Below the pieces are notes generated by a model. It was not told the DNA's origin and did no database searches. It worked only from the letters and a program-made list of their open reading frames with translations. A stretch of DNA of 64,000 nucleotides from Squalus acanthias (Eukaryota), in the NCBI GenBank assembly GCA_030390025.1, contig CM059431.1, forward strand, positions 143,160,001-143,224,000. Direction: 5' to 3'. Below, in pieces: positions 1,922 through 62,440 of this stretch (position 1 is its first letter; every line of letters begins with the position of its first letter). Both the position numbers and the translations under genes were made by a program.

Positions 1922-3110
1922 GCGTGTCTCTCCCAGTGAGGAGTCAGACTCTGTAAACAGTGTCCCTGTGTACAGTGTGTGTCGCTCCCAGTGAGGAGTA
2001 AGACTCTGTAACAAGTGTCCCTGTGTACAGTGTGTGTCTGTCCCAGTGAGGAGTCAGACAGTGTAACAAGTGTCCCTGTGTACAGTGCGTGTCTCCCAGT
2101 GAGGAGTCAGACTCTGTAACAAGTGTCCCTGTGTACAGTGTGTGTCTCTCCCAGTGAGGAGTCAGACTCTGTAACAATTGTCCCTGTGTACAGTGTGTGT
2201 CTCTCCCAGTGAGGTGTCAGACTCTGTAACAATTGTCCCTGTGTACAGTGTGTGTCTCTCCCAGTGAGGAGTCAGACTCTGTAACAAGTGTCCCTGTGTA
2301 CAGTGTGTGTCAACCAGTGAGGAGTCAGACTATGTAACAAGTGTCCCTGTGTACAGTGTGTGTCTCTCCCAGTGAGGTGTCAGACTCTGTAACAAGTGTC
2401 CCTGTGTACAGTGTGTGTCTCTCCCAGTGAGGAGTCAGACTCTGTAAAAAGAGTCCCTGTGTACAGTGTGTGTCTCTCCCAGTGAGGAGTCAGACTCTGA
2501 AACAAGAGCCCCTGTGTACAGTGTGTGTTTCTCCCAGTGAGGAGTCAGACTCTGTAACAAGTGTCCCTGTGTGCAGTGTCTGTCTCTCCCAGTGAGGAGT
2601 CAGACTCTGTAACAAGTGTCCCTGTGTACAGTGTCTCTCTCCCAGTGAGTCGTACCCTGTAACAAGTGTTCCTGTGTACAGTGTGTGTCTCTCCCAGTGA
2701 GGAATCGGACTCTGTAACAAGTGTTCCTGTGTACAGTGAGTGTCTCTCCCTTTGCGGAGTCGGACTCTGTAACATGTGTCCCAGTGTACAGTGTGTGTCT
2801 CCTCCAGTGAGGAGTCAGACTGTGTAACAAGTGTCCCTGTGTACAGTCTGTCTCTCCCAGTGAGGAGTCAGACTCTGTAACAAGTGTCCCTGTGTACAGT
2901 GTGTGTATCTCCCAGTGAGGAGACAGACTCTGTAACAAGTGTCCCTGTGTACAGTGTGTGTATCTCCCAGTGAGGAGACAGACTCTGTAACAAGTGCCCC
3001 TGTGTACAGTGTGTGTCTCTCCCAGTGAGGAGTCGGTATCTGTAACAAGTGTCCCTGTGTACAGTGTGTGTCTCTCCCAGTGAGGAGTCGCACTCTGTAA
3101 CAAGTGTCCC
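1922..3110. repeat. 55-bp minisatellite, ~21 copies
   Basis: Unit CTCTGTAACAAGTGTCCCTGTGTACAGTGTGTGTCTCTCCCAGTGAGGAGTCAGA repeated head to tail with no spacers. Confidence 0.95.
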
Positions 3111-14448: not shown

Positions 14449-15103
14449 TATCTCATAGAAGGTGGTGGTGGATGGAACATTTTCGGACTGGAGACCAGTT
14501 ACCAGCGGTGTGCCACAGGGGTCGGTGCTGGGTCCTCTGCTGTTTGTGATTTTTATCAATGACTTGGAGGAGGGGACTGAAGGGTGGATCAGTAAATTTG
14601 CTGATGACACCAAGATTGGTGGAGTAGTGGATGAGGTGGAGGGCAGTTGTAGGCTGCAAAGAGACATTGATAGGATGCAGAGCTGGGCCGAAAAATGGCA
14701 GATGGAATTTAACCCTGATAAGTGCGAGGTGATTCATTTTGGTAGGGCAAATTTGAATAAGGATTACAGGGTCAACGGCAGGGTTCTGAGGAACGTGGAG
14801 GAGCAGAGGGATCTGGGGGTTCATATCCACAGATCTCTGAAGGTTGCCACTCAAGTGGATAGAGCAGTAAAGAAGGCCTATGGTGTGTTGGCGTTTATTA
14901 ACAGAGGGTTTGAGTTTAAGAACCGTGAGGTTATGCTGCAACTGTACAGGACCTTGGTGAGACCACATTTGGAATATTGTGTGCAGTTCTGGTCACCTCA
15001 CTATAGGAAGGACGTGGAAGCATTGGAAAGAGTGCAAAGGAGATTTACCAGGATGCTGCCTGGTTTGGGGGGGGAGGTCTTATGAGGAAAGATTGAGGGA
15101 GTT
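14449..15103 (+). mobile_element. Internal RT fragment of the young CR1 family
   Basis: Aligns by eye to 54642-55302 with ~5 substitutions and 2 small indels. Contains [11 protein letters not shown] and KFADDT. Confidence 0.95.
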
Positions 15104-23182: not shown

Positions 23183-23256
23183 GCATGGATTGCTCAGTCA
23201 GTAGAGCATCAGACTTCATAATCTGAAGGTCCAGGGTTCAAGTCCCTGGTCAGGTG
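23183..23256 (+). pseudogene. tRNA-Lys(TTT)-derived pseudogene with an 8-nt anticodon loop
   Basis: GCTCAGTCAGTAGAGCA-TCAGA-CTTCATAA-TCTGA-AGGTCCAGGGTTCAAGTCCCTG. D, anticodon and T stems are intact; the acceptor stem is mismatched. Confidence 0.8.
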
Positions 23257-25809: not shown

Positions 25810-26480
25810 GAAACAGTACGCGTAAGATATAGGGTAATGTTCACTCAACACTGTACCAAAGAACATTCCAGGGCAGGTACAGCACCGGTTAGATACAGAG
25901 TAAAGCTCCATCTACAATGTCCCGTCAAACATTCCCACAGCAGGTACAGCACGGGTTAGATACAGAGTAAAGCTCCATGTACACTGTCCCCTCAAAAAGT
26001 CCGACGGCAGTTACAGGGCGGGCCAAATGCAGAGTAAAGCTCCCTCGACACTGTCCCATCAAACACTCCCAGGGCAGGTACAGCACGGGTAAGATACAGT
26101 GTAAAGCTTCCTCTACACTCAACCACTCCCAGGGCAGGTATAGCATGGTTTAGACACAGAGTAAATCTCCCTCTACACTGTCCCATCAAAAATTCCCAGG
26201 CCAGGTAAAGCACGGGTTAGATACGGTATTACACTTCCTTTCTACGATCCCGTCAAATACTACCAGAGCAGGTGCTGCAGTGGTTAAATACAGTGTAAAT
26301 CCCGCTGTATTTTGGTTCAGCAAGAACTTTCATCTCTGATACAGCATCTGGTCAATACAGCTAAAAGCTCCTCTGACACTTTCTAATGAAGCAAACTAAC
26401 TCAGGTACACCACGGTACGGATACAGGTTAAAATTCCACGTGCATATAATTTTCAAGATCTCCCAGGTGAGGTATGGACA
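25810..26480. repeat. ~67-bp minisatellite array
   Basis: Unit ACAGCACGGGTTAGATACAGAGTAAAGCTCCCTCTACACTGTCCCATCAAACACTCCCAGGGCAGGT. Confidence 0.9.
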
Positions 26481-26944: not shown

Positions 26945-29900
26945 TGGTGAATCCCGTGGCAGTTGCACAGTTGGCTGGTCCTTTTTTTAATCTATTTTAT
27001 TGGCTGGAGAGCTGGTTCAGGAGCGAGGGCTTTAGATTTCTGAGGCATTGGGACCGTTTCTGGGGGAGGTAGACCTTATACAAGCCAGACGGGTTGCACC
27101 ACAACAGAGCCAGTAACAATATCCTCTGGTGCTGTTGGGAGGGTTTAAACTAGCTTGGCAGGGGGATGGGAACCTGAGAATATTTTCAGAAGCGAGAGAA
27201 GTAAAGCTGCAAATGGAGGGCAGAAAATTAATCAGCGCGTTTGGAGAGCAGAGGAAACAAGGGCACGGAAATAGACAACAAGACATGTTGCTAAATGATA
27301 TATACTTTAACGCACGGAGTCTAGGAAATAAGGGAGATGAGCTAAGGGCACAGATAAACACCTGGGAGTATGATATTATAGTCATTACTGAAACATGACT
27401 GAAAGAAGGGCAGGACTGGCAGCTCAACATTCCTGGTTACAGGATATTCAGGCGAGATAGCGAGGTGTTTAAAAAAATAGGGCGTTCGCACTACTGAGAC
27501 TATTACATCTGTGATGAGGGATGATATGTTAGAATGATCATCAAATGAGGCCATGTGAATTGAACTAAAGGACAAAAATGGGACAATGACACTGCTGGGA
27601 GTGTACTGTAGACCCCCAAACAGTCCGAGGGAGAGAGAAGAGCAAATTTGTAGGCACATTTCTGACAAGTGCAAAAACAATAGGGCAGTGATAGTTTGGG
27701 GATTTCAATTACCCCAATATTAACTAGGATACTACCAGTGTAAAAGATATAGAGGGCACAGCATTCCTAAATTGCATTCTGGAGGACATTTTTAGCCAAT
27801 ACGTAGCAAACCCAAGAAGAGGGTGGGGGAGGGGGTGCAGCTCTTGATTTAGTTTTAGGGAATGAAGCTGTGCAGGTGGAAGGGGTAGAAGGAGTATCAG
27901 TGGGAGAGCATTTTTGTGTTAGTGATCATAATTCATTTAGTTTTAGCACAACAATGAATAAGGACAAAGAAAATACAGGAGTATGGGTTCTAAAATGGGG
28001 GAAGGCCAATTTTACCAGGTTAAGAAGTGATTTAGCAAAAGTGGACTGGAAACAGTTTCTTGAAATGTCAGAGCAGTGGGACATATTCAAGAGGGAGATA
28101 CATGGAGTTCAGGGTAAACATGAAAAAGGGTAGAACTGCCCAATTTAGAGCCCCTGGATGACAAGGTGCACACAGGGTAAGATAAGGCAAAAAAGGGAGG
28201 TAGATATCAGATAGAGTGAGCTCAATACTGCAGAAAGCCTCGAAGGGTACAGAAAGTGTAGGGGTGAAATTAGGAAGGAAATTAGGAAAGCAAAATAGAA
28301 CATGGGAAAATACTGGCAAGTAGAATCAAAGAATACCCAAAGATCTTTTATAATTACATAAAGAGCAAGAGGATAAATAAGGAAATAGTAGGGCCTATCA
28401 GGGACCAAAATGGTGATCTATTTGTGGAGGCAGAGGATGTGGGTAAGGTAATTAATGAATGCCTTGCAGCTGTATTCACAATAGAGGAGGAGGATTCCTA
28501 CTTTGAAGTTAAGGAGGAAGATAGTGAAATATTGTACTTGATAAACATAGTAAGAGAGCAAGTATTAAGTGGTTTAGCATCCGTGAAAGTAGATAAATCG
28601 CCAGGGCCGGATTCAATATATCCGAGGCTATTCAAATAAGCAATTGAGGAAATTGCGGAGGCTCTGACTATCATTTTCCAATCCTCCCTGGCTCCAGCAA
28701 TGGTGCCCCTGATTGGAGAACTGCTAAAGTTGTACCATTGTTTAAAAAGGGAGGAAGGGATAAACCGAGTAATTACAGGCCATTTGGTTTAATCTCGGTG
28801 GTGGACAAATTACTGGAATCAATTCTGAGGGGCAATGTAAACTTTCATTTAGAAAGACACAGATTGATCAAGAACAGTCAGCATAGTTTTGTTAAGGGAA
28901 GGTCGTGTCTGACTAATTGACTTAATTCTTTGTGGAGGTAAGAAGAATGGTCGATGAGCGCAGTGCATTTGATGTAGTCTACATGGATTTTAGCAAGTCC
29001 TTCGACAAGGTCCCACATGGCAGGCTGATCCAAAATGTAAACGCCCAGGGGGTCTGTAGGGGGTGGTGTGGTAGGGTCAGCTTCGCCTCTGACTCAGTGA
29101 GCGGTTCGAATCGCTCCCACGTCCCTGGTTCTAGACCTTGGACTTATTTGGGTGTTGTGAACAAAGATGCAGTCGACAACAGGTTTTGATGAAAGAGTTT
29201 TGACTTTTATTAAAGAAAAAAGGAAACAAACTTAAAACACACTTAATGCTTAAACACAGGTTGGGGAACACACGGTACAGGCGAGGGAGAATTACAATAT
29301 ACAAAAACCCTTATCCCTCCCAAATCCCACTGCCTAGCTAGGTTTGATTCCAGAAGATCAGGGATAATGTTCACCAAATGACAGTTCTTGACAGTTGAGA
29401 GTTAGGGTTTAGAGTCTTTTGAGTAAAAGGTTTCGTAAGGCCCTTGTTGCTGCGAGGTGTCCGATGGTCACTGAGGCGGTCGCTCTGGTCTCTTGAACTG
29501 CTGGCCTTCTTTGTTGAGCTTCTTTCTGTTGAACTCTGCCTCTGTTTAAACTGTCTTCTTCCGAGCTGTGGAACTGCCTTCTTGCAGAACTGTGGAACTC
29601 CTTGCTGCTTCTTCCTTGCTTCTCCTGAACTCTGTGTTTAATCGGAGTTTGAATTGTCCTCATGTTTTGGGTTTCTTGACTGAGCCTAGAACTTCGATCG
29701 GATATTTGCTTTATGTATGTCTTTAATGGGTTCTGTAATCGGTTTGATGGGACCTGTTGTTTTGATTGGGACTGTCTCCTCCTAGGATCTATTGTCAAAA
29801 TGTTAATGCGTGCTGGTGCTTTGAGTGAGGTCATTCCGGTTACACAGACATCGCAATTAACTGCAATACCCAAACTACTTTTGCAGAGGTCGAACCCAAC

Positions 29901-34764: not shown

Positions 34765-35435
34765 ATAGTTTAAGCTCCATCTACACGGTCCTATCAAACA
34801 CTCGCAGTTCAGGTATGGCACAAGATACATGCAGAGTAAAACTAACTCTACACCGTCCCATCAAACATTCGCAGGTCAGGTACAGCACGGGTTATCTGCA
34901 GTTTAAAGCACATTCTAAACAGCCACATCAAACAATTCCATATCTGGTCCAGCACTGAGTAGATACTGAGTAAATCTCCCGCTAGGCTGTCCCATCAAAC
35001 ACTCCCAGATCAGGTACAGAACGGATTAGCGATAGACTAAAGCTCTGTCAGCACTGTTCCATTAAACACACCCAGGTTAGACACTGCAGGGTTTAAATGA
35101 ATACTAATGCTTCCTCTACGAATTCCCATCATACACTCCCAGGGCAAGTACAACACGGGCTAGATACAGAGTAAAGCTCCCTCTACACAGCACCTTAAAA
35201 CACACCAAGGTCAGGAACAGTACAGGTCAGATACAGAATAAAGCTCCCTCTACATTGTTCCATAATACATTATCAGGACAGGTACAATAACGGTTAGAAA
35301 CAGAGTAAAGCTCCCTTTACACTCTTCGTTAAAACACACAATGAAGCAACAGCGCAGTTCAGATACAGAGTAAATTGCCCTGAACACTGTCCCATCAAAA
35401 GCTCCCAGGGCAAGTAGACAGGGCTTAGATACAAT
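34765..35435. repeat. ~67-bp minisatellite array
   Basis: Same unit as 25810-26480. Confidence 0.9.
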
Positions 35436-42224: not shown

Positions 42225-45200
42225 CAGAGAGCTGACTCATAAATCTGAGTAATATAAACAAGGGAGGTTGGTGTGCAGTTTGTCACGGAGTGCAACTTGA
42301 CACAAAGTGAATACATTTGGAGTTTGGTAAGTGTGGGAGTTCGTTGAAGTGGGAGAAGGAAGTGTCGCTTTGCCTTGCTTTTCCTAACCTCTCCCGCAGA
42401 GTGGCGGCGGACCTGAGCGGGAGCGGACCGAGGCCCGAGAGCGGGGATAAAAGCAGCAGAAGACCTGCAACTGCAAGAGAAAACTGCAGTGTGACGTCAC
42501 AGGTAAATCAGGTAAGTGATTGGTAGTGACTGTGGGCTAACGTTTATGTTAACATATAACATATAACTAAATTTTTAAAACTAAATTTACTTTAATTAAT
42601 TTAATAAAATAAACGAGGCAAATACTTTGATTACCATTAAACTAATAAATTAATAACTCAGTACAATAATGGGAGAACAGGAAATATGTGTTGCTGCTGC
42701 AATATGTGGGAGCTTGTGGTCACTTTTGTCCAGGGTGACTACACCTGCGGTAAAGTATCTGCGGCTCGAGGAACTTCGGTTCCGACTGGAGGAGCTGGAG
42801 TCCAAGCTGCAGACATCGCGAGACATCAGGGAGGGAGAAAGTTACCTGGACCTTTTTCTCCAGGAGGCAGCTACACCCCTTAGACTAAATACTTTAGAAT
42901 TGACACGAGGTCATGGACAGGAGGGTGTGGCTGTGAGTGAGGCAAGTACGGGGATCCAGGAGGTAGTATTGCAGGAGCCTCAGTCCCTGCACTTGTCCAA
43001 TAGATTCGAGGTTCTTGTAACCTTTGTGGACAAGTGCGGGGACTGCGAGGAGGACGAGCAAACTGACCACTGCACCGTGGTACAGGAAGCCGTTCAAGTT
43101 GGGAAAGTAAAAATGAAGGTGGTTGTTGTAGGTGACACTATAGTTAGGGGGATAGAAACTGTTCTCTGCAGCCAGGAGCGTGAGACCCGAAGGCTAGGTT
43201 GCCTACCTGGTGCCAGGGTAAAAGACATCTCCTCCGGGCTGTACAAGAACTTGGAATGGGAGGGCGAGCAACCAGTTGTCGTGTTCCACGTAGGTACCAA
43301 TGACATAGGTAGGACTAAGATAAAGGTTCTGCTGCGAGAGTTTGAGCAGCAGAACCACAAAGGTAATAATCTCTGGATTATTACCTGAGCCACGAGCAAA
43401 TTGGCATAGGGTCAATCGGATCAGGGAGATGAATGCGTGGCTCAAGCATTGGTGTGGGAGAAGTGGGTTTTGATTCCTGGGGCACTGGCACTAGTACTGG
43501 TGAAAGAGAGAGCTGTTCCGTTGGGACGGACGACACATGAACCATGCTGGGACCAGAGTTCTAGTGAATCGAATAACTAGGGAGGTAGTTAGGGCTTTAA
43601 ACAACATAAGGGCGGGGGGGGGGGGGGGGGGGGGGTCACGGTGGAGAGAAATCTAGAATGTTAAAGAGAAAAGACAAGGAAGCAGTGCAGGAACGGGAAT
43701 GGGTAAGGATAACCAGATTGTGTCAGGAAGGGACAGAGCGTATAAACAAAAGAGTGCACTAACAAATAGGATCCCGGTAAGAAAAAATGGTAAGACAAAT
43801 AGGGCCATAGTACAAAAAAAGTTAAGATGTCCAAAAATTTTAAAAAGACAAATCTAAAGGCACTGTTTCTGAATGCACGAAGCATTCGTAATAAGGTAGA
43901 CGAATTAACAGCACAAATAGATGAAAACGGATACAATTTAATTGCAATTACAGAGACATGGTTGCTGAGTGACCAAGGCTCGGAGCTGAATATCCAAGGA
44001 TATTCCATATTTAGGAAGGATAGGCAAAAAGGTAAAGGAGGTGCAGTGGCGTTGTTCGTGAAGGATGATAGCAGAGCAATAATGAGAAAGGATATTGGCT
44101 CAGAAAATCAAGATGTTGAATCAGTCTGTGTGGAGCTAAGAAGCAGAACACATTGGTGGGAGTTGTATATAGGCCTCCAAACAGTAGCTTTAATGTAGTG
44201 GACGGCATCAAACAGGAAATTAGAAATGCATGAAACAACTGTACTACAGTAATCACGGGTGTCTTTAATCTACATAAAGAATGGCCAAAGCAAATTAGCA
44301 GTAATACTGTGGAGGATGAATTCCTGGAGTGTGTACGAGATGTTTTTTTTAGACCAGTACGTTGAGGAGACAACCAGGGAACAGACTATCAAAGATTGGG
44401 CATTCTGCAATGAGAAGGGGTTAAATAATAATCTTGTTTTTCGGTGTCCTTTAGGGAAGAGTGAACATAACATGTAAGAATTCTTCATTACGATGGAAAG
44501 TTAAGTAGTCCAATCCGAAACTAGGGTCCTAATTCAAAACAAAGGAAACCACGAAGGTAAGAGAAGGGAGTTGGTTATGATAGATTGGGGTGCTTCATTA
44601 AAAGTCATGATGGTGGATAGACAATGGCTAACATTTAAGGAACGGATGTTTGAATTGCAACAGCTATACATTGCTTTCTGGCCCAAAGACACTAAAGGGA
44701 AAGCGGCCCAACCATTGCTAACAAAAAAGTTAAAGATAGTATTAGATCGAAAGAGGAGTCATATAAAGTTGCCAGAAAAAGTAGCAAGCCTGAGGATTGG
44801 GAGCAGTTTAGAGTTCAGCAAAAACAGGCCAAGAGATTGATTAAGAGGGGAAAAAGAGTATTATAGTAAACTGACGAGGCACATAAAAGCAGCAAGTAAA
44901 CGCTTCTGTAAGTATGTAAAATGAAAAAGATTAGTGAAGACAAATGTAGGCCCCTTACAGTCAGAAATGGAAGAATTTATAATGGGGAACAAGGAAATGG
45001 CAGAGCAATTAAACAAAAACTTTGCCTCTGTCTTCACGGTAGAGGTCCCAAATAACTTCCCAATTAAATCTAAGGAACTAAGGGTCTAGTGAGAAGGAGG
45101 AATTAAAGGAAATTAGTCTTAGTAAAAAATAGTGCTGGAGAAATTAATGGGACTGAAAGCCGATAAATTCCCCGGGCCTGATAACCTGCATAACAGAGTA

Positions 45201-51394: not shown

Positions 51395-52450
51395 GATATT
51401 CAGGTGACATGTTGGAACTCCAGGGCGCTTCACCTATCCATGATAATCACGTGTCCATGAAGTGCCTCCATCTGCTCGAACATAAGCTCAGAGTTTCTGA
51501 GCTTGAGGGGCGGCTGGCGTCATTGCAGGGCTGAGAATTTGCTCGATCACATGGTCACCCCGCAGCCACAGTGAGTTCAGGAGCATAGTAAGTTGGTCGC
51601 CATCGGCAGGGTGCGAAGAGGCTGGTGTTGCAGGGATCGTCCTGGAACGTGGCAATCTCACGGATGTGGTCGATTACAGACCAAAAAGGAGATTTTCTTG
51701 TGCAGGCTGGGGCATGGCTTCGGTTCTAAATCAATACTTTGCATGTGACTTCACTAAAGAAAAGGATGCTGCCAATGTTACAGTAAAGTAGGCGATAGTT
51801 GAGAAATTGGATAGGATAAACATAAATAAAAATGATGTACATGAAAGGTTGGTAGCGCTCAAAGTACAAAAGTCACCTGGTCCAAATGGGCTGTATCCGC
51901 GGTAGCTGAGGGAAGTAAGGGTTGAAATTGCAGAGGCTCTGGAGTCACTAAATCTTCCAGTCCACCTTTGATATGGGAGAGCTGCCAGCGTAGTGGTGCA
52001 TCGCAAATATTGCACCCCGTTCAAAAAAGGGGAGAGGGATAATCTGGCAACTCAGGCCAGTCAACCTAACGTCGTGCAGAAACATTTAGAGACAATAATC
52101 CGACAGAAACTTAATTGGCACTTGGAAAATGTGGGTTAATCAATGAAAGCCAGCATAGATATTTTAATGGGGAATCATGTTTTACTAAGTTGATCGAGTC
52201 CTTTCATGAAGTAACTGAAAGGGTTGATGAGGGTAGTGCAGTTGATGCTGTGTATATGGATACAGATTTAAGATAAATGGCACAAAAACCAGCGGGGACA
52301 TGAGGTAAAAATTAATGAAAAAATAGGTAGCAGAGGAGTGGATCGAATTGTTTATCTATTTCAAAGAGCCGGCACAGGCACAATGAGCCAAATGGCCTCC
52401 TTCTGTACTGTATAATTCTAGGATTCTAGGATTCTATGATTCTATGATCT
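51395..52450 (+). mobile_element. Internally deleted old CR1 remnants (ORF1 start, RT N-terminal part, 3' end)
   Basis: ORF1-like CTCAGAGTTTCTGAGCTTGAG, AAGTCACCTGGTCC, GTGTATATGGA; tail (ATTCTAGG/ATTCTATG)n. Confidence 0.75.
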
Positions 52451-55400
52451 GGGTTGGAAGCTGAGAGCCAGTACAAACCATGTTGTAATTTCTGGTTTGT
52501 TGCCGGTGCCACGTGCTAGCGAGTTGAGGAACAGGGAGAGAGTGCAGATAAACACGTGGCTGCAGGGATGGTGTAGGGGGGAGGGTTTCAGTTATGTGGA
52601 TAATTGGAGCACATTCTGGGGAAGGTGGGACCTGTACAAACAGGACGGTTTGCACCTGAACCAGAGGGGCACCAATATCCTGGGAGGGAAATTTGCTACG
52701 GCTCTTCGGGGGGGTTTAAACTAATTTGTCAGGGGGATGGGAAAAAGGGCTGTAGTCCACGAGCCAGTGGTGAGTGTAGGGAGGTACTGAGGAGGGTATC
52801 AAGGTCGCAGGAATGTACCGGCAGACAGGAAGATGGCTTGAAGTGTGTCTACTTCAATGCAAGGAGCATCCGGAATAAGGTAGGAGAACTTGGAGCGTGG
52901 ATTGGTACTTGGGACTACGATGTGGTGGCCATTACGGAGACATGGTTAGAACAGGGACAGGAATGGTTGTTGGAAGTTCCGGGGTATAGATGTTTCAGTA
53001 AGAGTAGGGAAGTTGGTAAGAAAGGTGGAGGAGTAGCATTGTTAATCAAGGATAGTTTAACAGCGGCAGAAAGGCAGTTCGAGGGGGATCTGCCGTCTGA
53101 GGTAATATGGGCTGAAGTTAGAAATAGGAAAGGAGCGGTCACGTTGTTAGGAGTTTTCTACAGGCCCCCAAATAGTAATAAAGATGTGGAGGAAGAAATT
53201 GCAAAGCAGATTATGAATAGGTGTGGAGGTCACAGAGTAGTTGACATGGGTGACTTCAACTTTCCAAATATTGATTGGAACCTTTATCGGTCAAACAGTT
53301 CGGATGGGATAGTTTTTGCACAGTGTGTGCAGGAGGGTTTCCTGACACAATATGTGGATAGGCCGACAAGAGGTGGGGCCACGTTGGATTTGGTACTGGG
53401 TAATGAACCGGGCCAAGTGTTTGATTTGTATGTGGGAGAGCACTTTGGAGATAGTGACCACAATTCGGTAACTTTCACTATTGCAATGGAGAGGGATAGG
53501 GCCATACAGCAGGGCAGGGTTTATAATTGGGGGAGGGGTAATTATGATGCGATTAGGCAAGAATTAGGGAGTATAAGATGGGAACAGAAACTATCAGGGA
53601 AAGGCACAAACGAAAAGTGGAGCTTTTTCATGGAGCAATTACTGCGTGTCCTTGATAGGTATGTCCCTGTCAGGCAGGGAGGAAATGGCCGAGTGAGAGA
53701 ACCATGGTTCACAAAAGAGGTTGAATGTCTAGTCAAGAGGAAAAAGGAAGCGTATGTAAGGATGAGAAAACAAGGTTCAGTTGGGTCGATTGAGGGGTAC
53801 AAGGTAGCAAGGAATGAGCTAAAAAAAGAGCTTAGGAGAGCTAGGAGGGGGCATGAGAAGTCCTTGGCGGGTCGGATCAAGAAAAACCCCAAGGCTTTTT
53901 ACTCTTATGTGAGAAATAAAACAATGACCAGGGTGAGGGTAGGGCCGGTCAAGGACAGTAGTGGAAACTTGTGCATGGAGTCAGAAGAGATAGGAGAGGT
54001 GATGAATGAATACTTTTCGTCAGTGTTCACCGAGGAGAGGGGCCATGTTCTTGAGGATGAGAGTGTGATAAAGGTGGATAGGCTGGAGGTGGTAGATGTT
54101 CTGAGGGAACATGTTTTAGCAATTTTGAAGAACCTGAGGGTCGATAAGACCCCTGGGCCAGATGGGATATATCCTAGGATTCTTTGGGAGGCAAGGGAGG
54201 AGATTGCAGAGCCTCTGGCTTTGATCTTTGGGTCCTCACTGTCCACGGGGATGGTGCCAGAGGACTGGAGAGTGGCGAATGTTGTTCCTCTCTTCAAGAA
54301 AGGAAATAGGAATGACCCTGGTAATTATAGGCCGGTTAGTCTTACTTCGGTGGTTGGTAAGATAATGGAAAAGGTCCTGAGGGATAGGATTTATGACCAT
54401 TTGGAAAGGGGCAACTTAATCAGGGAAAGTCAACACGGATTCATGAAGGGTAAGTCTTGCCTAACAAATTTGATTGAATTCTTTGAGGAGGTAACTAAGT
54501 GTGTAGATGAAGGTAGAGCAGTTGATGTCTTATACATGGATTTTAGTAAGGCGTTTGATAAGGTTCCCCATGGTCGTCTCATGAAGAAAGTAAGGAGTTG
54601 TGGGATAGAGGGAAATTTGGCCGATTGGATAAGTAACTGGCTATCTCATAGAAGGCAGAGGGTGGTGGTGGATGGAACATTTTCGGACTGGAGACCAGTT
54701 ACCAGCGGTGTGCCACAGGGGTCGGTGCTGGGTCCTCTGCTGTTTGTGATTTTTATCAATGACTTGGAGGAGGGTACTGAAGGGAGGATCAGTAAATTTG
54801 CTGATGATACCAAGATTGGTGGAGTAGTGGATGAGGTGGAGGGCAGTTGTAGGCTGCAAAGAGACATTGATAGGATGCAGAGCTGGGCCGAAAAATGGCA
54901 GATGGAATTTAACCCTGATAAGTGCGAGGTGATTCATTTTGGTAGGGCAAATTTGAATAAGGATTACAGGGTCAACGGCAGGGTTCTGAGGAACGTGGAG
55001 GAGCAGAGGGATCTGGGGGTTCATATCCACAGATCTCTGAAGGTTGCCACTCAAGTGGATAGAGCAGTAAAGAAGGCCTATGGTGTGTTGGCGTTTATTA
55101 ACCGAGGGTTTGAGTTTAAGAACCGTGAGGTTATGCTGCAACTGTACAGGACCTTGGTGAGACCACATTTGGAATATTGTGTGCAGTTCTGGTCACCTCA
55201 CTATAGGAAGGACGTAGAAGCATTGGAAAGAGTGCAAAGGAGATTTACCAGGATGCTGCCTGGTTTGGGGGGGAGGTCTTATGAGGAAAGATTGAGGGAG
55301 TTGGGGCTTTTCTCTTTAGAGCGGAGGAGGATGAGAGGCGACTTAATAGAGGTTTATAAGATGATGAGGGGGATAGATAGAGTGGATGTTCAGAGACTAT

Positions 55401-55705
55401 TTCCTCGGGTAGAGGCAGCTGTTACAAGGGGGCATAACTATAAGGTGCATGGGGGAGATATAGAAGGGATGTCCGAGGTAGATTCTTTACTCAGAGAGTG
55501 GTTGGGGTGTGGAATGGACTGCCTGCTGTGATAGTGGAGTCGGACACTTTAGGAACTTTCAAGCGGTTATTGGATAAGCACATGGAGCACACCAGAGTGA
55601 TAGGGAGTGGGATAGCTTGATCTTGGTCTCGGACAATGCTCGGCACAACATCGAGGGCCGAAGGGCCTGTACTGTGCTGTACTGTTCTATGTTCTATGTT
55701 CTATG
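52451..55705 (+). mobile_element. Young 5'-truncated CR1 LINE (end of ORF1, near-intact ORF2, 3' UTR, (TGTTCTA)n tail)
   Basis: Direct repeat TTCTATGATCT at 52440-52450 and 55706-55716. ORF1 end DGLHLN...GGLN* at 52724, followed by a long open ORF2. Confidence 0.97.
52715..55531 (+). CDS. CR1 ORF2: AP endonuclease + reverse transcriptase; true start uncertain, -1 nt lesion in the G run at 55451-55455
   Basis: [67 protein letters not shown]. The typical C-terminus ([23 protein letters not shown]) continues in another frame. Confidence 0.92.
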
Positions 55706-56249
55706 TTCTATGATCTCCGTGCCATTGTTCGTAGTTAGCCGCAGTGTAGGTTGTAAATTTAACAAATGCTGCACTAAGAAAGCGCAGAAACTGATTGTGG
55801 GAAGCGGATGTGTGATCCTGAAGTAACTTTGGGAGATGTGGGTTCACAGTGAAGAGCTTAGACTGCAGAGAAAGACACAAATGCACTTGAACCCTCCGCG
55901 AGCCTTTTCTCACCAATTCGCACTAACATTTAAGTAAGGGAGAAAGGGCTTTTAATTTCCTTTAAGATAAATTGGAGTCAATCAGAAAACTATAAAAAAT
56001 ATTTTATTATTGCTAGTGGTCCAACTGAAGCGCATCACGCACTATATCCAATCATTCCAATACATTAGTAAAGGTAATAAATTCATAATAATCATTTAAA
56101 ATTGAAATTAAACTAAACATTGGGAGTTTAGAAATTATCTGTGAGAAATGCCTCCTGTAGTTTCACCCCAACCGTGCATCTCTTTCTGGAGCTGGATCCT
56201 TATATTTTGCTAAATTTTCAAAATCCAGAAAATTAGCCAAGCACAGGTC

Positions 56250-57487: not shown

Positions 57488-58140
57488 TGGGATCTGGCAT
57501 ATTACGGGAACCCGTGGGACTGGGATCTGGCAGAGTGCGGGGACCCGTGGGACTGGAACTGGCAGAGTGCGGGAACCCGTGGGACTGGGATCTGGCAGAG
57601 TGCGGGAACCCGTGGGACTGGGATCTGGCAGAGTGCGGGAACCCGTGGGACTGGGATCTGGCAGAGTGTGGGAATCCGTGGGACTGGGATCCGGCAGAGT
57701 GCGGTAAACCGTGGGACTGGGAACTGGCAGAGTACGGGAACCTGTGGGACTGGGATCTGGCAGAGTGAGGGAACCCGTGGGACTGTGATCTGGCAGAGTG
57801 CGGGAACCCGTGGGACTGGGATCTGGCAGAGTGTGGGAACCTGTGGACTGGGATCTGGCAGAGTGCGGGAACCCGTGGGACTGGGATCTGGCAGAGTGTG
57901 GGAACCTGTGGGACTGGGATCTGGCAGAGTGCGGTAACCCGTGGGACTGGGAACTGGCAGAGTGACGGAACCCGTGGGATTGGGATCTGGCAGAGTGCGG
58001 GAACCCGTGGGACTGGGATCTGGCAGAGTGTGGCAACCCGTGGGACTGGGATCTGGCAGCATGCGGGAACCCGTGGGACTGGTAATTGGCAGAGTGCGGG
58101 AACCCGTGGGATGGAATCTGGCAGAGAGTGGGATCTGACA
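57488..58140. repeat. 33-bp G-rich minisatellite, ~20 copies
   Basis: Unit GGGACTGGGATCTGGCAGAGTGCGGGAACCCGT. Confidence 0.95.
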
Positions 58141-59296: not shown

Positions 59297-59509
59297 TCTT
59301 TTCACAAATAGTAACTTTAAAAGTGAATTGGGTATTTACTTGAAAAGGCAGGATTTGCTGGGCTTTGGGGAAAGAGCAGGGGAGTTGGACTAATGGGATA
59401 CCTATTTCAAAGAGCCGTAAGAGGCACGATAGGCCGTATGGTCTTCTTATGTGCTTTCTGATTCTATGATTCTATGCCGCTTGCGTTGTCTGCCCATTAA
59501 TGTCAATGG

Positions 59510-62440
59510 AATTGAACTAATGAAGGGGGCGGGGGGGGGGGCGGGAGGATTCAGGAAAGATTACATTTAAATGCAGTGAAATGTCAAGGCAAAAAAACAG
59601 AGTAGAGTTTTGGGTAAACATAAACAGAGTGGGTCAGGAAGGGACAGAGAGAGTAACAAAGGTAAAAAGGCATCAGTGACTAATATCTGAATGCGTGAAG
59701 CATTCACAACAAAATAGATGAATTAATAGCGCAGTTAGAAATTAACAGGTTTGATCTAATAGCCAAAACGGAGACGTGGTTGCAAAGTGGCCAAAGTTGG
59801 GAACTAAATATTCCAGGATACATAAATTTTATAAGAGATAGGCAAATTGAAAAAGGAGGAGGGGTAGCCCTGATAATAAGGGATGGGATACAGACAGTAG
59901 CGAGAAAGGATCTTAGCTCTGAAAATCACGAAGTAGAATTAGTTTGGGTGGATCTCAGAAACAGCAAGGGGCTGTATGCAAGATAGTTTTCTAGACCAGT
60001 ATGTTGAGGAACCAACTAGAGAACATGAACTTAGATCTAGTATTGTGCAACGAGAAAGGGTTAATTAATAACCTTGTAGTAAAGGGGCACTTAGAGAAGA
60101 GAGACCATAATATTACAGAATTTTATATTGAGTTTGAAAGAACATAGTTGAATCCGAAACTAGGGTCTTAAATCTAAACAAAGCAAACTACATAGGCATG
60201 AGGGGCGAGTTGGCTAAGGCAGATTGGGAAAATATATTAAAAGGTATGACAGTGGACGCGCAATGGCTAGCATTTAAAGAATTAATACATAATTTACAAC
60301 AAATATACATTCCTTTAAGGCACAAAATCCCCACAGGAAAAGTGATACAACTTTCGCTAACAAGAGAAGTTAAAGATAGTATTAGGTCAAAGGAAGAGGC
60401 TTTTAATGCTGCCAGAAAGTGTAGTAAGCCTGAGGATTGGGAGTATTTTCGAATTCAGCAAAGGAGGACCAATAAATGTATTAAGGAAGGGAAAATAGAA
60501 TGAGAGTAAACTAGCGAGAGACATAAATACAGTCTGTTAAAGCTTCTATAGATATGTAAAAAGGCAAAGTTAGCGAAAGTAAATGTGGTTCAGTTACAGA
60601 CTGAGACAGGAGAAATTATAATGAGGAATAAGGAAATTGGCAGAGAAATGAAAAAAAAACTTTGTGTCTATCTTCACAGTAGAAGACGCAAAAAACTTCC
60701 CGGAAATAGTGGACAAGTAAGGGTCCAGCGAGAATGAGGAGCGGAAAGAAATTAGGATTAGTAAAAAAGTAGTACTGGAGAAATTAATGGAACTGAAACC
60801 GATAAATCCCCTGGATCTGATGGCCTACTTCCTAGGGTTTTGAAAGAGGTCACTATAGAAATAGTTGGTGCATTGCTTGTAATTTTCCAATATTCCGTAG
60901 ATTCTGGAATGGTTCCACGGATTGGAAGGTAGCAAATATAATCCCACTAGTTAAGAAAGGAGGGAAAGAGAAAACGGGGAACTATAGTTCAGTAAGCCTG
61001 ATATCAGTAGTAGTGGAAATGCTAGAATCTATTGTTCAGGACGTGGTAACAGGGCGCTTAGAAAGTAATGATAGGATTGGGCAGAGTCAACACGAATTTA
61101 TGAAAGGGAAATCGTCTTTGAAAAATCTGTTAGAGTTTTTTAGGCTGTAACTAGCAGAATAGATAAGGGGTGACCAGTGGATGCGGTGTATTGGGATTTT
61201 CAGAAGGCATTCAATAATTAGGTTATTCAACAAAATGAGGGCTAATGGGATTGGGGTAATATTCTAGCAATATTCTACAATTGGTTAACCGACTGAAATA
61301 ATTGCAATAAATCGATTCTAACCGGAGTTGCGTTTGAGTAGCTCTATCAGAGAGGTTGTGGGTTAACCGACTGAAAACAGAGATTAGGAATAAACGGGTC
61401 ATTTTCGGGTTGGCAGGCTGTAACTATAAGGGTACCGCAAGGATCAATGCTTGGGCCGCAGCTATTCACAATCTAAATCAATTTTTTGGATGAGGGGACC
61501 AAATGTAATATATCCAAATTTACTGATGATACAAAGCTAGATGGGAATGTACGTTGTGAGGAGGATGCAAAGAGGCATCAAGGGCATACAGACAGACTAA
61601 GTGAGTGGGCAAGAACAAGGCAAATAGAATATAATTTCGAGAAATGTGAAGTTATTTACTTTGGTAGGAAAAGCAGAAAAGCGGAGTAATTTTTAAATGG
61701 TGCGAGATTGAGAAATGTTGGTGTTCAGAGGGAGATGGGTATCCTTGTACGCGAATCACTGAAATTTAACATGCAGGTGCAGCAAGCAATTAGGAAAGTA
61801 TGTTGGCCTTTTTTACAAGAGGATTTCAATTTAAGAATCAAGACGTCTTCCTGCATTTATATGGGGCCCTGGTGAGACCACACCTGGTGTATTGCGTGAA
61901 ATTGTGGTCTCCTTACCTAACGAAGGATATATTTGCCATAGAGGGAGAGCAAGGAAGGTTCACCAGACTGGTTCCTGGGATCGGGGGATTGTCCTATGAG
62001 GACAGATTGAGTGGACTAGGCCTATATTCTCGAGAGTTTCGAAGAATGAGATTTCATTGAAACATACAAAATTCTTACAGGGCTTGAAAGGCTAGATGCA
62101 GTGAGGATGTTTACCCTGGCTGGTGAGTCTAGAACCAGGGATCACAGTTTCAAAATAAAGGGTCGTCCATTTAGGACTGAGATGAGGAGAAATGTCTTCA
62201 CTCAGAGGGTGATGAATCTTTGGAATTCTCTACCCCAGAGGACTGTGGAGGCTCAGTCGCTGAGTATATTCAAGACAGAGGTAGTTAGATCTTTGAATAT
62301 TAAAGGGATTAAGGGAGATGGAGATAGTTTAGGAAAGTAGAGATGAGGTGGAAGATCAGCCATGATCTCATTGAATGGCGGAGCAGGCTCGAAAGGCCAA
62401 ATGATCTACTCCTGCTCCTGTTTCTTATGTTATATTGTTT
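59510..62440 (+). mobile_element. Degenerate CR1 ORF2 with 3' end
   Basis: WELNIPGY, KGGGVALII, ISKFTDDTKL, VRPHLVYC, FTQRVMNLWNSLPQR; many stops. Confidence 0.9.

Follow-up and report, generated by a model that had tools for sequence, protein, structure and literature searches.

A 64,000-nucleotide stretch of Squalus acanthias DNA (contig CM059431.1 of assembly GCA_030390025.1, positions 143,160,001 to 143,224,000; hereafter the window) carries a CR1-type long interspersed nuclear element (LINE), here called copy A, whose two open reading frames (ORFs) meet at the slippery heptamer U_UUA_AAC. Based on comparison of this junction with its relatives, ORF2 of the family is very probably made by programmed -1 ribosomal frameshifting at the heptamer, which would give a fusion of ORF1 with the endonuclease (EN) and reverse transcriptase (RT) of ORF2. 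Copy A has a heptamer of the X_XXY_YYZ form in the phase of the upstream ORF and a -1 ORF that is open across the site and lacks a start codon of its own, the arrangement that characterizes frameshift sites. Most ribosomes would terminate at the UAA that adjoins the heptamer. In a minority, tRNA-Leu and tRNA-Asn on UUA-AAC would re-pair one base back and translation would continue, producing the predicted junction peptide ...GGLN-LICQ.... Abundant ORF1p would be accompanied by small amounts of an ORF1(esterase)-linker-endonuclease-RT fusion, in the manner of Gag and Gag-Pol.

Copy A and its ORF1/ORF2 junction

Copy A occupies approximately positions 52450-55716 of the window and consists of a 92-codon ORF1 remnant, ORF2 and a tandem-repeat tail (Table 1). 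The remnant matches Pfam PF13472 (E=5e-6), a score that its truncation keeps under the curated cut-off, and shares 49-86% identity with 19 longer esterase ORF1 proteins, 82-86% with the five best full ones. With an SGNH/GDSL esterase in ORF1, APE and RT domains in ORF2 and a tail of tandem repeats, copy A is an esterase-type CR1 LINE. It is 5'-truncated near 52452, starting right behind the tail of another CR1, and a family contig aligned from 52452 with a loose end before that position. Owing to this truncation, copy A is not translatable as a unit and merely records the signal of its family. An RT fragment at 14459-15073 encodes protein 99% identical to copy A, so the family is young. The last ~25 codons of ORF2 (about 55450-55531) look out of register with the usual CR1 C-terminus when judged by eye, and copy A probably carries one late frame break in ORF2.

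Frame reading bore out the original prediction that ORF1 ends in GGT TTA AAC TAA and that ORF2 lies open in the -1 frame with no ATG until the KQIMNR motif deep in the endonuclease domain. From stop to stop the open ORF2 frame spans 975 aa (52604 to 55531). Counting from the heptamer, its first ATG (53213, in KQI-M-NR) is at residue 167. A start at this ATG drops ~120 endonuclease residues, more than half of the domain. Glu43 of the L1 endonuclease binds the catalytic metal, and its equivalent in the copy A frame, residue 75 by alignment to L1 EN (1vyb/2v0s), is among the residues lost. A family contig (run X9) spanning 52452-53330 has just 2 differences from copy A, and the absence of a start is therefore a family trait and did not arise by decay of copy A. 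For contigs from diverged relatives, 13 differences are listed between 52682 and 52707; the adjoining 52708-52743 has none listed, although several of these contigs extend to 52728-52741.

Table 1. Features of the CR1 copies in the window (coordinates are window positions)
Feature	Position	Strand	Basis or remark
Copy A: CR1 ORF1 3' remnant, SGNH/GDSL esterase C-terminus, end G-G-L-N-stop	52446..52724	+	Pfam, protein identity
Copy A: overlapping in-phase G_GGU_UUA, register of other lineages' U_UUU_UUA	52712..52718	+	present in copy B too
Copy A: slippery heptamer U_UUA_AAC (TTTAAAC) in ORF1 phase, predicted -1 shift site	52715..52721	+	sequence, conservation
Copy A: ORF1 stop TAA immediately 3' of heptamer	52722..52724	+	frame reading GGT TTA AAC TAA
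Copy A: G-rich tract 10 nt after heptamer, candidate stimulator	52732..52741	+	sequence, G4Hunter
Copy A: APE endonuclease domain of ORF2	52850..53461	+	Pfam PF03372 E=9e-19, aa 46-249, above cut-off
Copy A: reverse transcriptase domain of ORF2	54302..55021	+	Pfam PF00078 E=1e-37, aa 530-769, above cut-off
Copy A: 3' tail of short tandem repeats (unit TGTTCTA), CR1 type, no poly(A)	55683..55716	+	repeat scan
Copy B junction: U_UUA_AAC (27144-27150), TAG, G-tract at 10 nt; 53-codon linker open to endonuclease	27144..27170	+	
Copy C junction: U_UUA_AAC (43596-43602), long G run; in phase with endonuclease	43596..43635	+	
Copy D junction: degenerate A TTG AAC (59511-59517), TAA overlapping in-frame ATG (TAATG, 59518-59522), G run	59511..59545	+	

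The window holds many CR1-like fragments. As predicted, the heptamer recurs at the junctions of copies B and C, and a degenerate form of it lies in copy D. The G-rich tract expected about 10 nt after each heptamer stands at that distance in copies A and B; in copy C it lies at 7 nt. The stop of copy C comes 51 nt beyond the heptamer and not directly behind it, and its linker is decayed, with 7 stops. Copy D is decayed as well and begins ~35 nt upstream of its junction. With both strands counted, the window has 31 copies of TTTAAAC, where shuffles lead one to expect 12.5; a single occurrence is thus meaningless, and only a fixed position across lineages counts.

Position of the heptamer in relatives

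Relatives were fetched by an endonuclease N-terminal motif, a search blind to the junction, which yielded 44 loci in metagenomes (from 11 of the collection's 64 parts) and 10 genome-contig loci. Four of the ten genome-contig matches were set aside as chance, and the other six resemble endonuclease. The ORF1 esterase end was recognizable by hidden Markov model or DGxH motif in 15 of the 50 endonuclease-bearing loci and not in the remaining 35. A strict X_XXY_YYZ heptamer in the ORF1 phase was found at the ORF1 end in 14 of the 15 loci (17 of 18 with the window copies included), 59-71 nt after the D of the DGxH motif where that motif was found, and the -1 frame ran stop-free from heptamer into endonuclease in 13 of the 15. 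The background elsewhere was 46 in-phase heptamers per 8879 codons, or ~2.6% for a five-codon slot. Four of the 35 loci without a recognizable esterase end (L014, L020, L022, L050) carry TTTAAAC TAG in phase. These were picked by the heptamer and enter only the set of 21 junctions used below, which comprises 14 blind-fetched loci, the three window copies and these four; the count of 14 in 15 does not include them.

Two heptamer types were present at the 21 junctions: T TTA AAC, encoding Leu-Asn, in 13, and T TTT TTA, encoding Phe-Leu and lying one codon upstream, in 8. The TTA Leu column is common to both types (68 versus 71 nt from the motif). Slipperiness is thus kept while the peptide changes, and the overlapping G_GGU_UUA of copies A and B shows how one heptamer site could replace the other. 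An endonuclease tree was built from 35 rows without a named Repbase or Dfam reference; short rows, including winB, L019, L020, L029, L038 and L060, were omitted. Both heptamer types fell inside one supported clade (99/96). The window copies grouped with bird-like loci (94/90), and L042 branched apart with weak support. Endonuclease identity of the relatives to the window copy was ~29-58%, a divergence at which passive retention of silent sites is implausible. The sequences show the heptamer, its phase, the missing start, the in-phase open linker and conservation across lineages, and this comparison lends support to the gag-pol-like frameshift originally suggested.

Eight loci (L015, L035, L036, L041, L042, L047, L058, L062) are esterase-ORF1 CR1s that branch apart from the vertebrate-type group. 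In PMC4120745, the esterase ORF1 type was found in vertebrate subgroups only. Viral contigs held 0 CR1 loci in one scan and 2 weak loci at E 5e-4 in another; a further 10 + 1 motif matches in viral contigs were without endonuclease similarity and were discarded as chance.

Linkers, start codons and codon choice

The linker from heptamer to endonuclease measures 99-309 nt, a multiple of three in 20 of the 21 junctions and stop-free in 19 of those. Its length varies and its phase is kept, as expected if it were translated from the heptamer onward. The ORF1 stop lies at 0 nt from the heptamer in 10 of the 13 U_UUA_AAC junctions and at 0-3 nt in 16 of the 21 overall. This closeness also suits termination-reinitiation, the mechanism reported for SART1 (UAAUG) and human L1 (PMC3894237, PMC2881922), in which the heptamer would be a conserved coupling signal and not a shift site. 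Nearby starts of the kind that re-initiation would use are seen in copy D, with TAATG in the ORF2 frame, in L022, with an ATG 2 nt after the stop, and in L035, with an early in-frame ATG; in copy A an ATT overlaps the stop. The codons after the stop, however, are not conserved as starts. ATG is missing from 9 of the 21 linkers and elsewhere scattered over codons 2-83, and it falls within five codons only in L022, L035 and the decayed copy D, so that a SART1-type AUG at or adjacent to the ORF1 stop is not conserved. No AUG or near-cognate start after the ORF1 stop was shared among the 21 junctions, which speaks against the independent non-AUG initiation that the original prediction had named as an alternative. 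The upstream UGGGA motif was present in just 6 of the 21 junctions, at scattered distances. Re-initiation also leaves unexplained the constant X_XXY_YYZ form in two variants, as well as L017, L029 and L036, in which the stop lies 6-39 nt past a heptamer that stays in place. We therefore consider re-initiation unlikely.

Free synonymous variation of the junction codons among CR1 families, which would speak against frameshifting, was not seen. Leu-Asn at the junctions is written T TTA AAC in 13 of 13 cases, four of them chosen by the heptamer itself, and Phe-Leu T TTT TTA in 8 of 8. In the remainder of these ORFs, slippery coding is seen in only 5 of 58 Leu-Asn pairs and 4 of 18 Phe-Leu pairs. 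TTA accounts for 32% of the Leu codons and AAC for 32% of the Asn codons in these ORFs, yet neither codon varies at the junction. The T preceding the Leu or Phe codon is also fixed, although at least 11 different residues occur as the amino acid whose codon it ends. As judged from these codon counts, the heptamer is conserved beyond coding need. The same counts bear on a second explanation, that a protein constraint on the esterase C-terminus (Leu-Asn) together with A/T-rich codons makes the heptamer accidentally, and that ORF2 is expressed through an internal ribosome entry site or from an internal promoter. A TTA Leu in the same column for both heptamer types would agree with such a constraint, as would the general over-representation of TTTAAAC in the window, but neither the invariance of TTA, AAC and the preceding T nor the eight Phe-Leu junctions would. 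This explanation is strongly disfavoured, and we regard it as very improbable. Least probable is an alignment of the ORF2 frame at the RNA level by splicing or transcriptional slippage: G runs can act as splicing elements, but no polypyrimidine tract precedes any AG at 52446-52852 (at best, 12 of 20 positions are pyrimidines), splicing would have been expected to deposit intron-less copies in the genome, the longest homopolymer in U_UUA_AAC is 3, and contigs of two runs guessed to be RNA showed no joints, a weak test since contigs drop rare forms.

C-termini of ORF1 proteins

Searching with the ORF1 remnant turned up 19 longer relatives, and Leu-Asn is the C-terminal pair in 16 of them. The protein set was then 168 different proteins, with 150 listed matches from a profile search over 50%-identity representatives. 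LN formed the last two residues in 67 of the 168; one of these is an internal fragment and was dropped. The residue before Leu can be encoded with a third-position T in 65 of the 66 true LN C-termini, as U_UUA_AAC requires. K, Q, E, M and W, for which no third-position T is possible, make up 16% at the seven positions preceding LN ends. Hosts of LN-ending ORF1 proteins by name are shark, eel, turtle, two lizards, snake, swallow and sturgeon, the sturgeon record being flagged by its source as an unverified contaminant. These names come from look-ups of 20 proteins, and for shark and eel from the ORF1-remnant search.

Ends anchored on the DGxH motif, 20-31 residues on (n=109), were LN in 65 proteins, GN in 11, KN in 6, FF in 4, FL in 3 and GF in 3. 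LN, GN, KN and GF are the dipeptides encoded by U_UUA_AAC, G_GGA_AAC, A_AAA_AAC and G_GGU_UUU, four heptamers listed among the shiftiest on mammalian ribosomes (PMC5009743). The listed proteins end in GN (P0065, P0069, P0077, P0078, P0082, P0085, P0086, P0094, P0134, P0162), KN (P0083, P0116, P0143, P0148, P0154, P0157), FF (P0074, P0090, P0130) and GF (P0098, P0153), and Gln precedes GN in 9 of the 10 GN-ending proteins. These protein ends match other classic slippery heptamers, which the groups may use. A plasmid search for one of the GN, KN, FF or GF ORF1 ends gave no match.

Two further records deserve mention. P0018 is a predicted protein running from the ORF1 esterase end via the -1 frame (G-G-F-K-L) into the endonuclease; it is most likely a broken genomic copy and not evidence for a natural fusion. 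P0006 is an ORF1 esterase named as a Pseudomonas aeruginosa hydrolase. This record and the CR1 fragments L058, L060, L061, L062, L064 and L066 in bacterial and archaeal assemblies are probably eukaryotic contamination.

Candidate downstream stimulators and evidence against frameshifting

The stimulator is the weakest link of the frameshift reading for copy A. Hairpins in the 50 nt after the site (z -1.9 to -3.7), starting 3-12 nt downstream, were predicted in 8 of the 12 junctions without a G-tract, and hairpin strength differed between G-tract and non-G-tract junctions (Mann-Whitney p = 0.006, groups assigned by sequence). The stem starts 11-12 nt downstream in five related loci, where pairs are kept through one- and two-sided changes (G-U/A-U, G-C/C-G, C-G/A-U), as counted by script in an ungapped MAFFT alignment. 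A scan for H-type pseudoknots run without a shuffle control gave plausible structures in L036 and L017. Based on these predictions, the stimulator in this one lineage is likely to be a 3' structure, either a hairpin or a pseudoknot.

For the vertebrate-type junction, the candidate stimulators are the adjacent stop and the G-tract at 10 nt, which may be bound by protein, form a G-quadruplex or pair at long range. The G-tract of copy A has a G4Hunter score of 1.56, in the top 0.6% of windows in the element, and lacks a clear set of four G3 tracts. Behind UUUAAAC, a -1 shift can be promoted by a G-quadruplex, which works best with four G3 tracts and a 6-8 nt spacer (PMC3919603). Longer spacers, of 11-14 nt, are reported for the protein-stimulated sites of arteriviruses and cardioviruses (PMC5009743). 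The arteriviruses employ a trans-acting protein complex and not a classical RNA structure; the CR1 motif is G-rich, and the analogy is a lead only. The pseudoknot scan of the window, likewise without a shuffle control, returned weak GC-poor candidates for copies A and B and none for C, and Rfam had no match at the junction.

Several observations weigh against frameshifting. Folding of 52722-52800 of copy A, the ~80 nt that had been proposed for this check, gave no structure (z = 0.00). Neither a hairpin nor a pseudoknot is predicted downstream for the window family as a whole (z = 0.0 to +1.3), and z <= -1.9 is reached by 0 of 9 G-tract junctions. When the G-tract was scanned along each element for long-range duplexes, no convincing partner emerged; the best values, from a scan without a control, were -19 to -27 kcal/mol, and the only shared places were GC-rich coding motifs. 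The spacer of 10-11 nt exceeds the usual 5-9 nt (PMC5009743). Among the relatives, L038 is without the heptamer and that of L060 is out of phase. Four of the 21 junctions (L014, L020, L022, L050) were selected for the heptamer itself, and the junctions are kin, so the counts are not independent events. The in-frame ATG within five codons in L022 and L035 and the overlapping TAATG beside the degenerate heptamer of copy D belong here too, as do the 17 of 109 DGxH-anchored ORF1 ends that carry none of the six slippery-compatible dipeptides.

Comparison with known systems

U_UUA_AAC is the site of infectious bronchitis virus and U_UUU_UUA that of human immunodeficiency virus (Atkins et al. 2016, PMC5009743). 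The CR1 junction resembles retroviral gag-pol and nidoviral ORF1a/1b, in which the same two heptamers close a structural ORF and the polymerase ORF follows in the -1 frame; one CR1 lineage has a 3' stem, like the viral sites. Unlike the viral sites, it resides in a retrotransposon without long terminal repeats (non-LTR), and vertebrate-type CR1 has a G-tract at 10 nt with no stem or pseudoknot at 5-9 nt.

Non-LTR elements named in the part of PMC5009743 available are HeT-A, TART and mammalian LINEs. According to a review figure legend (PMC5911963), Dictyostelium TRE5-A and TRE3-A require a -1 frameshift for ORF2. These are APE-type non-LTR elements of the L1 clade with a non-esterase ORF1 and a protist host, compared here by that statement alone; given this precedent, frameshifting is not new for LINEs as a class. 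SART1 and human L1 share with CR1 a bicistronic LINE RNA with low ORF2 output, but make a separate ORF2p, and SART1 coupling also uses a downstream RNA structure (PMC3894237, PMC3708506). The CR1 junction, in contrast, is without a conserved start, and its frames overlap across the slippery site.

The vertebrate canonical CR1 (ORF1 type IVB, CR1 subgroup 7; Metcalfe and Casane 2014, PMC4120745; PMC13343379) has an esterase ORF1, an ORF2 with APE and RT, and a tandem-repeat tail. In vertebrate canonical CR1, the esterase ORF1 of the full-length relatives carries a zinc-finger N-terminus. The junction signal is undescribed in the available main texts of PMC4120745 and PMC13343379, neither of which has the word frameshift; in the latter, a 2026 survey of the CR1 group, translation does not occur in that text either. 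The literature searched held no report of frameshifting at a CR1 junction, including the available portions of PMC11835228, PMC4255032, PMC5006619, PMC10888918, PMC3708506, PMC5911963, PMC3919603, PMC2881922 and PMC3894237; Haas 1997, Kapitonov and Jurka 2003 and Repbase lie outside that literature and may mention the overlap. Frameshifting at the CR1 junction would be a variation on a known mechanism, in a large family for which we found no report of it.

Loci with a non-esterase ORF1

In four loci, ORF1 and ORF2 share one frame with a single TGA between them: L026:1289-1291 (+), L034:733-735 (+), L045:1076-1078 (+) and L053:1675-1677 (-). The TGA is followed by C (CTG, CTG, CAT and CAA, respectively), and no ATG occurs before the endonuclease motif. 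The three of their non-esterase ORF1s that were scanned gave weak matches to PHD (L026, L053) and OTU (L045), and the four loci fall in three places of the endonuclease tree. Based on their sequences, these TGA-C loci are candidates for stop-codon readthrough. Four other loci (L028, L032, L040, L021) have a non-esterase ORF1 that overlaps ORF2 in the -1 frame by 140-280 nt. An in-phase heptamer is present in L028 and L032 (A_AAA_AAC) and in L040 (U_UUU_UUA), and L021 has no strict heptamer.

Other features of the window

Copies A and D each start where the tandem-repeat tail of a different CR1-type element ends (at 52415-52452 and 59455-59480, respectively), a placement suggesting that they inserted into such tails or were primed there. 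Five tandem arrays were located: the window opens with a GC-rich 21/48-mer (14-857), a 55-mer is repeated x22 at 1924-3110 and a 33-mer x20 at 57488-58133, and arrays of two related 67-mers lie at 25813-26299 and 34780-35433. A single tRNA-like Rfam match (43 bits) at 23183-23256 is possibly the head of a short interspersed element.

Implications

The translation of LINE ORF2 is called an open question in reviews, and the answers so far cover L1, SART1 and 2A-bearing elements only (PMC3894237, PMC3708506). In most vertebrate species, CR1 dominates among retrotransposon groups (PMC13343379). The CR1 junction signal, conserved far beyond the window, bears on this question. If the frameshift reading is true, the shift would set the ORF1p:ORF2p ratio and keep the enzyme attached to the ORF1 particle, as in Gag-Pol. 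ORF2 annotations beginning at the first ATG would be truncated, and CR1 mobility assays would need the junction intact. The junction would also be a very widespread natural frameshift site in vertebrate cells, perhaps with a new kind of stimulator.

We put forward a broader reading tentatively, and hold it to be slightly less probable than its opposite: CR1-group LINEs may generally reach ORF2 by retrovirus-style recoding. Esterase lineages would shift on interchangeable heptamers, of which U_UUA_AAC and U_UUU_UUA are seen in DNA; G_GGA_AAC, A_AAA_AAC and G_GGU_UUU, suggested by ORF1 C-termini, would be used as well; some PHD/OTU-type lineages would employ UGA-C readthrough; and the vertebrate CR1 shift would be driven by a new unstructured G-tract stimulator ~10 nt downstream. 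If this broader reading is true, birds, reptiles and sharks would have, in their dominant LINE, an ORF1-EN-RT fusion as the active enzyme.

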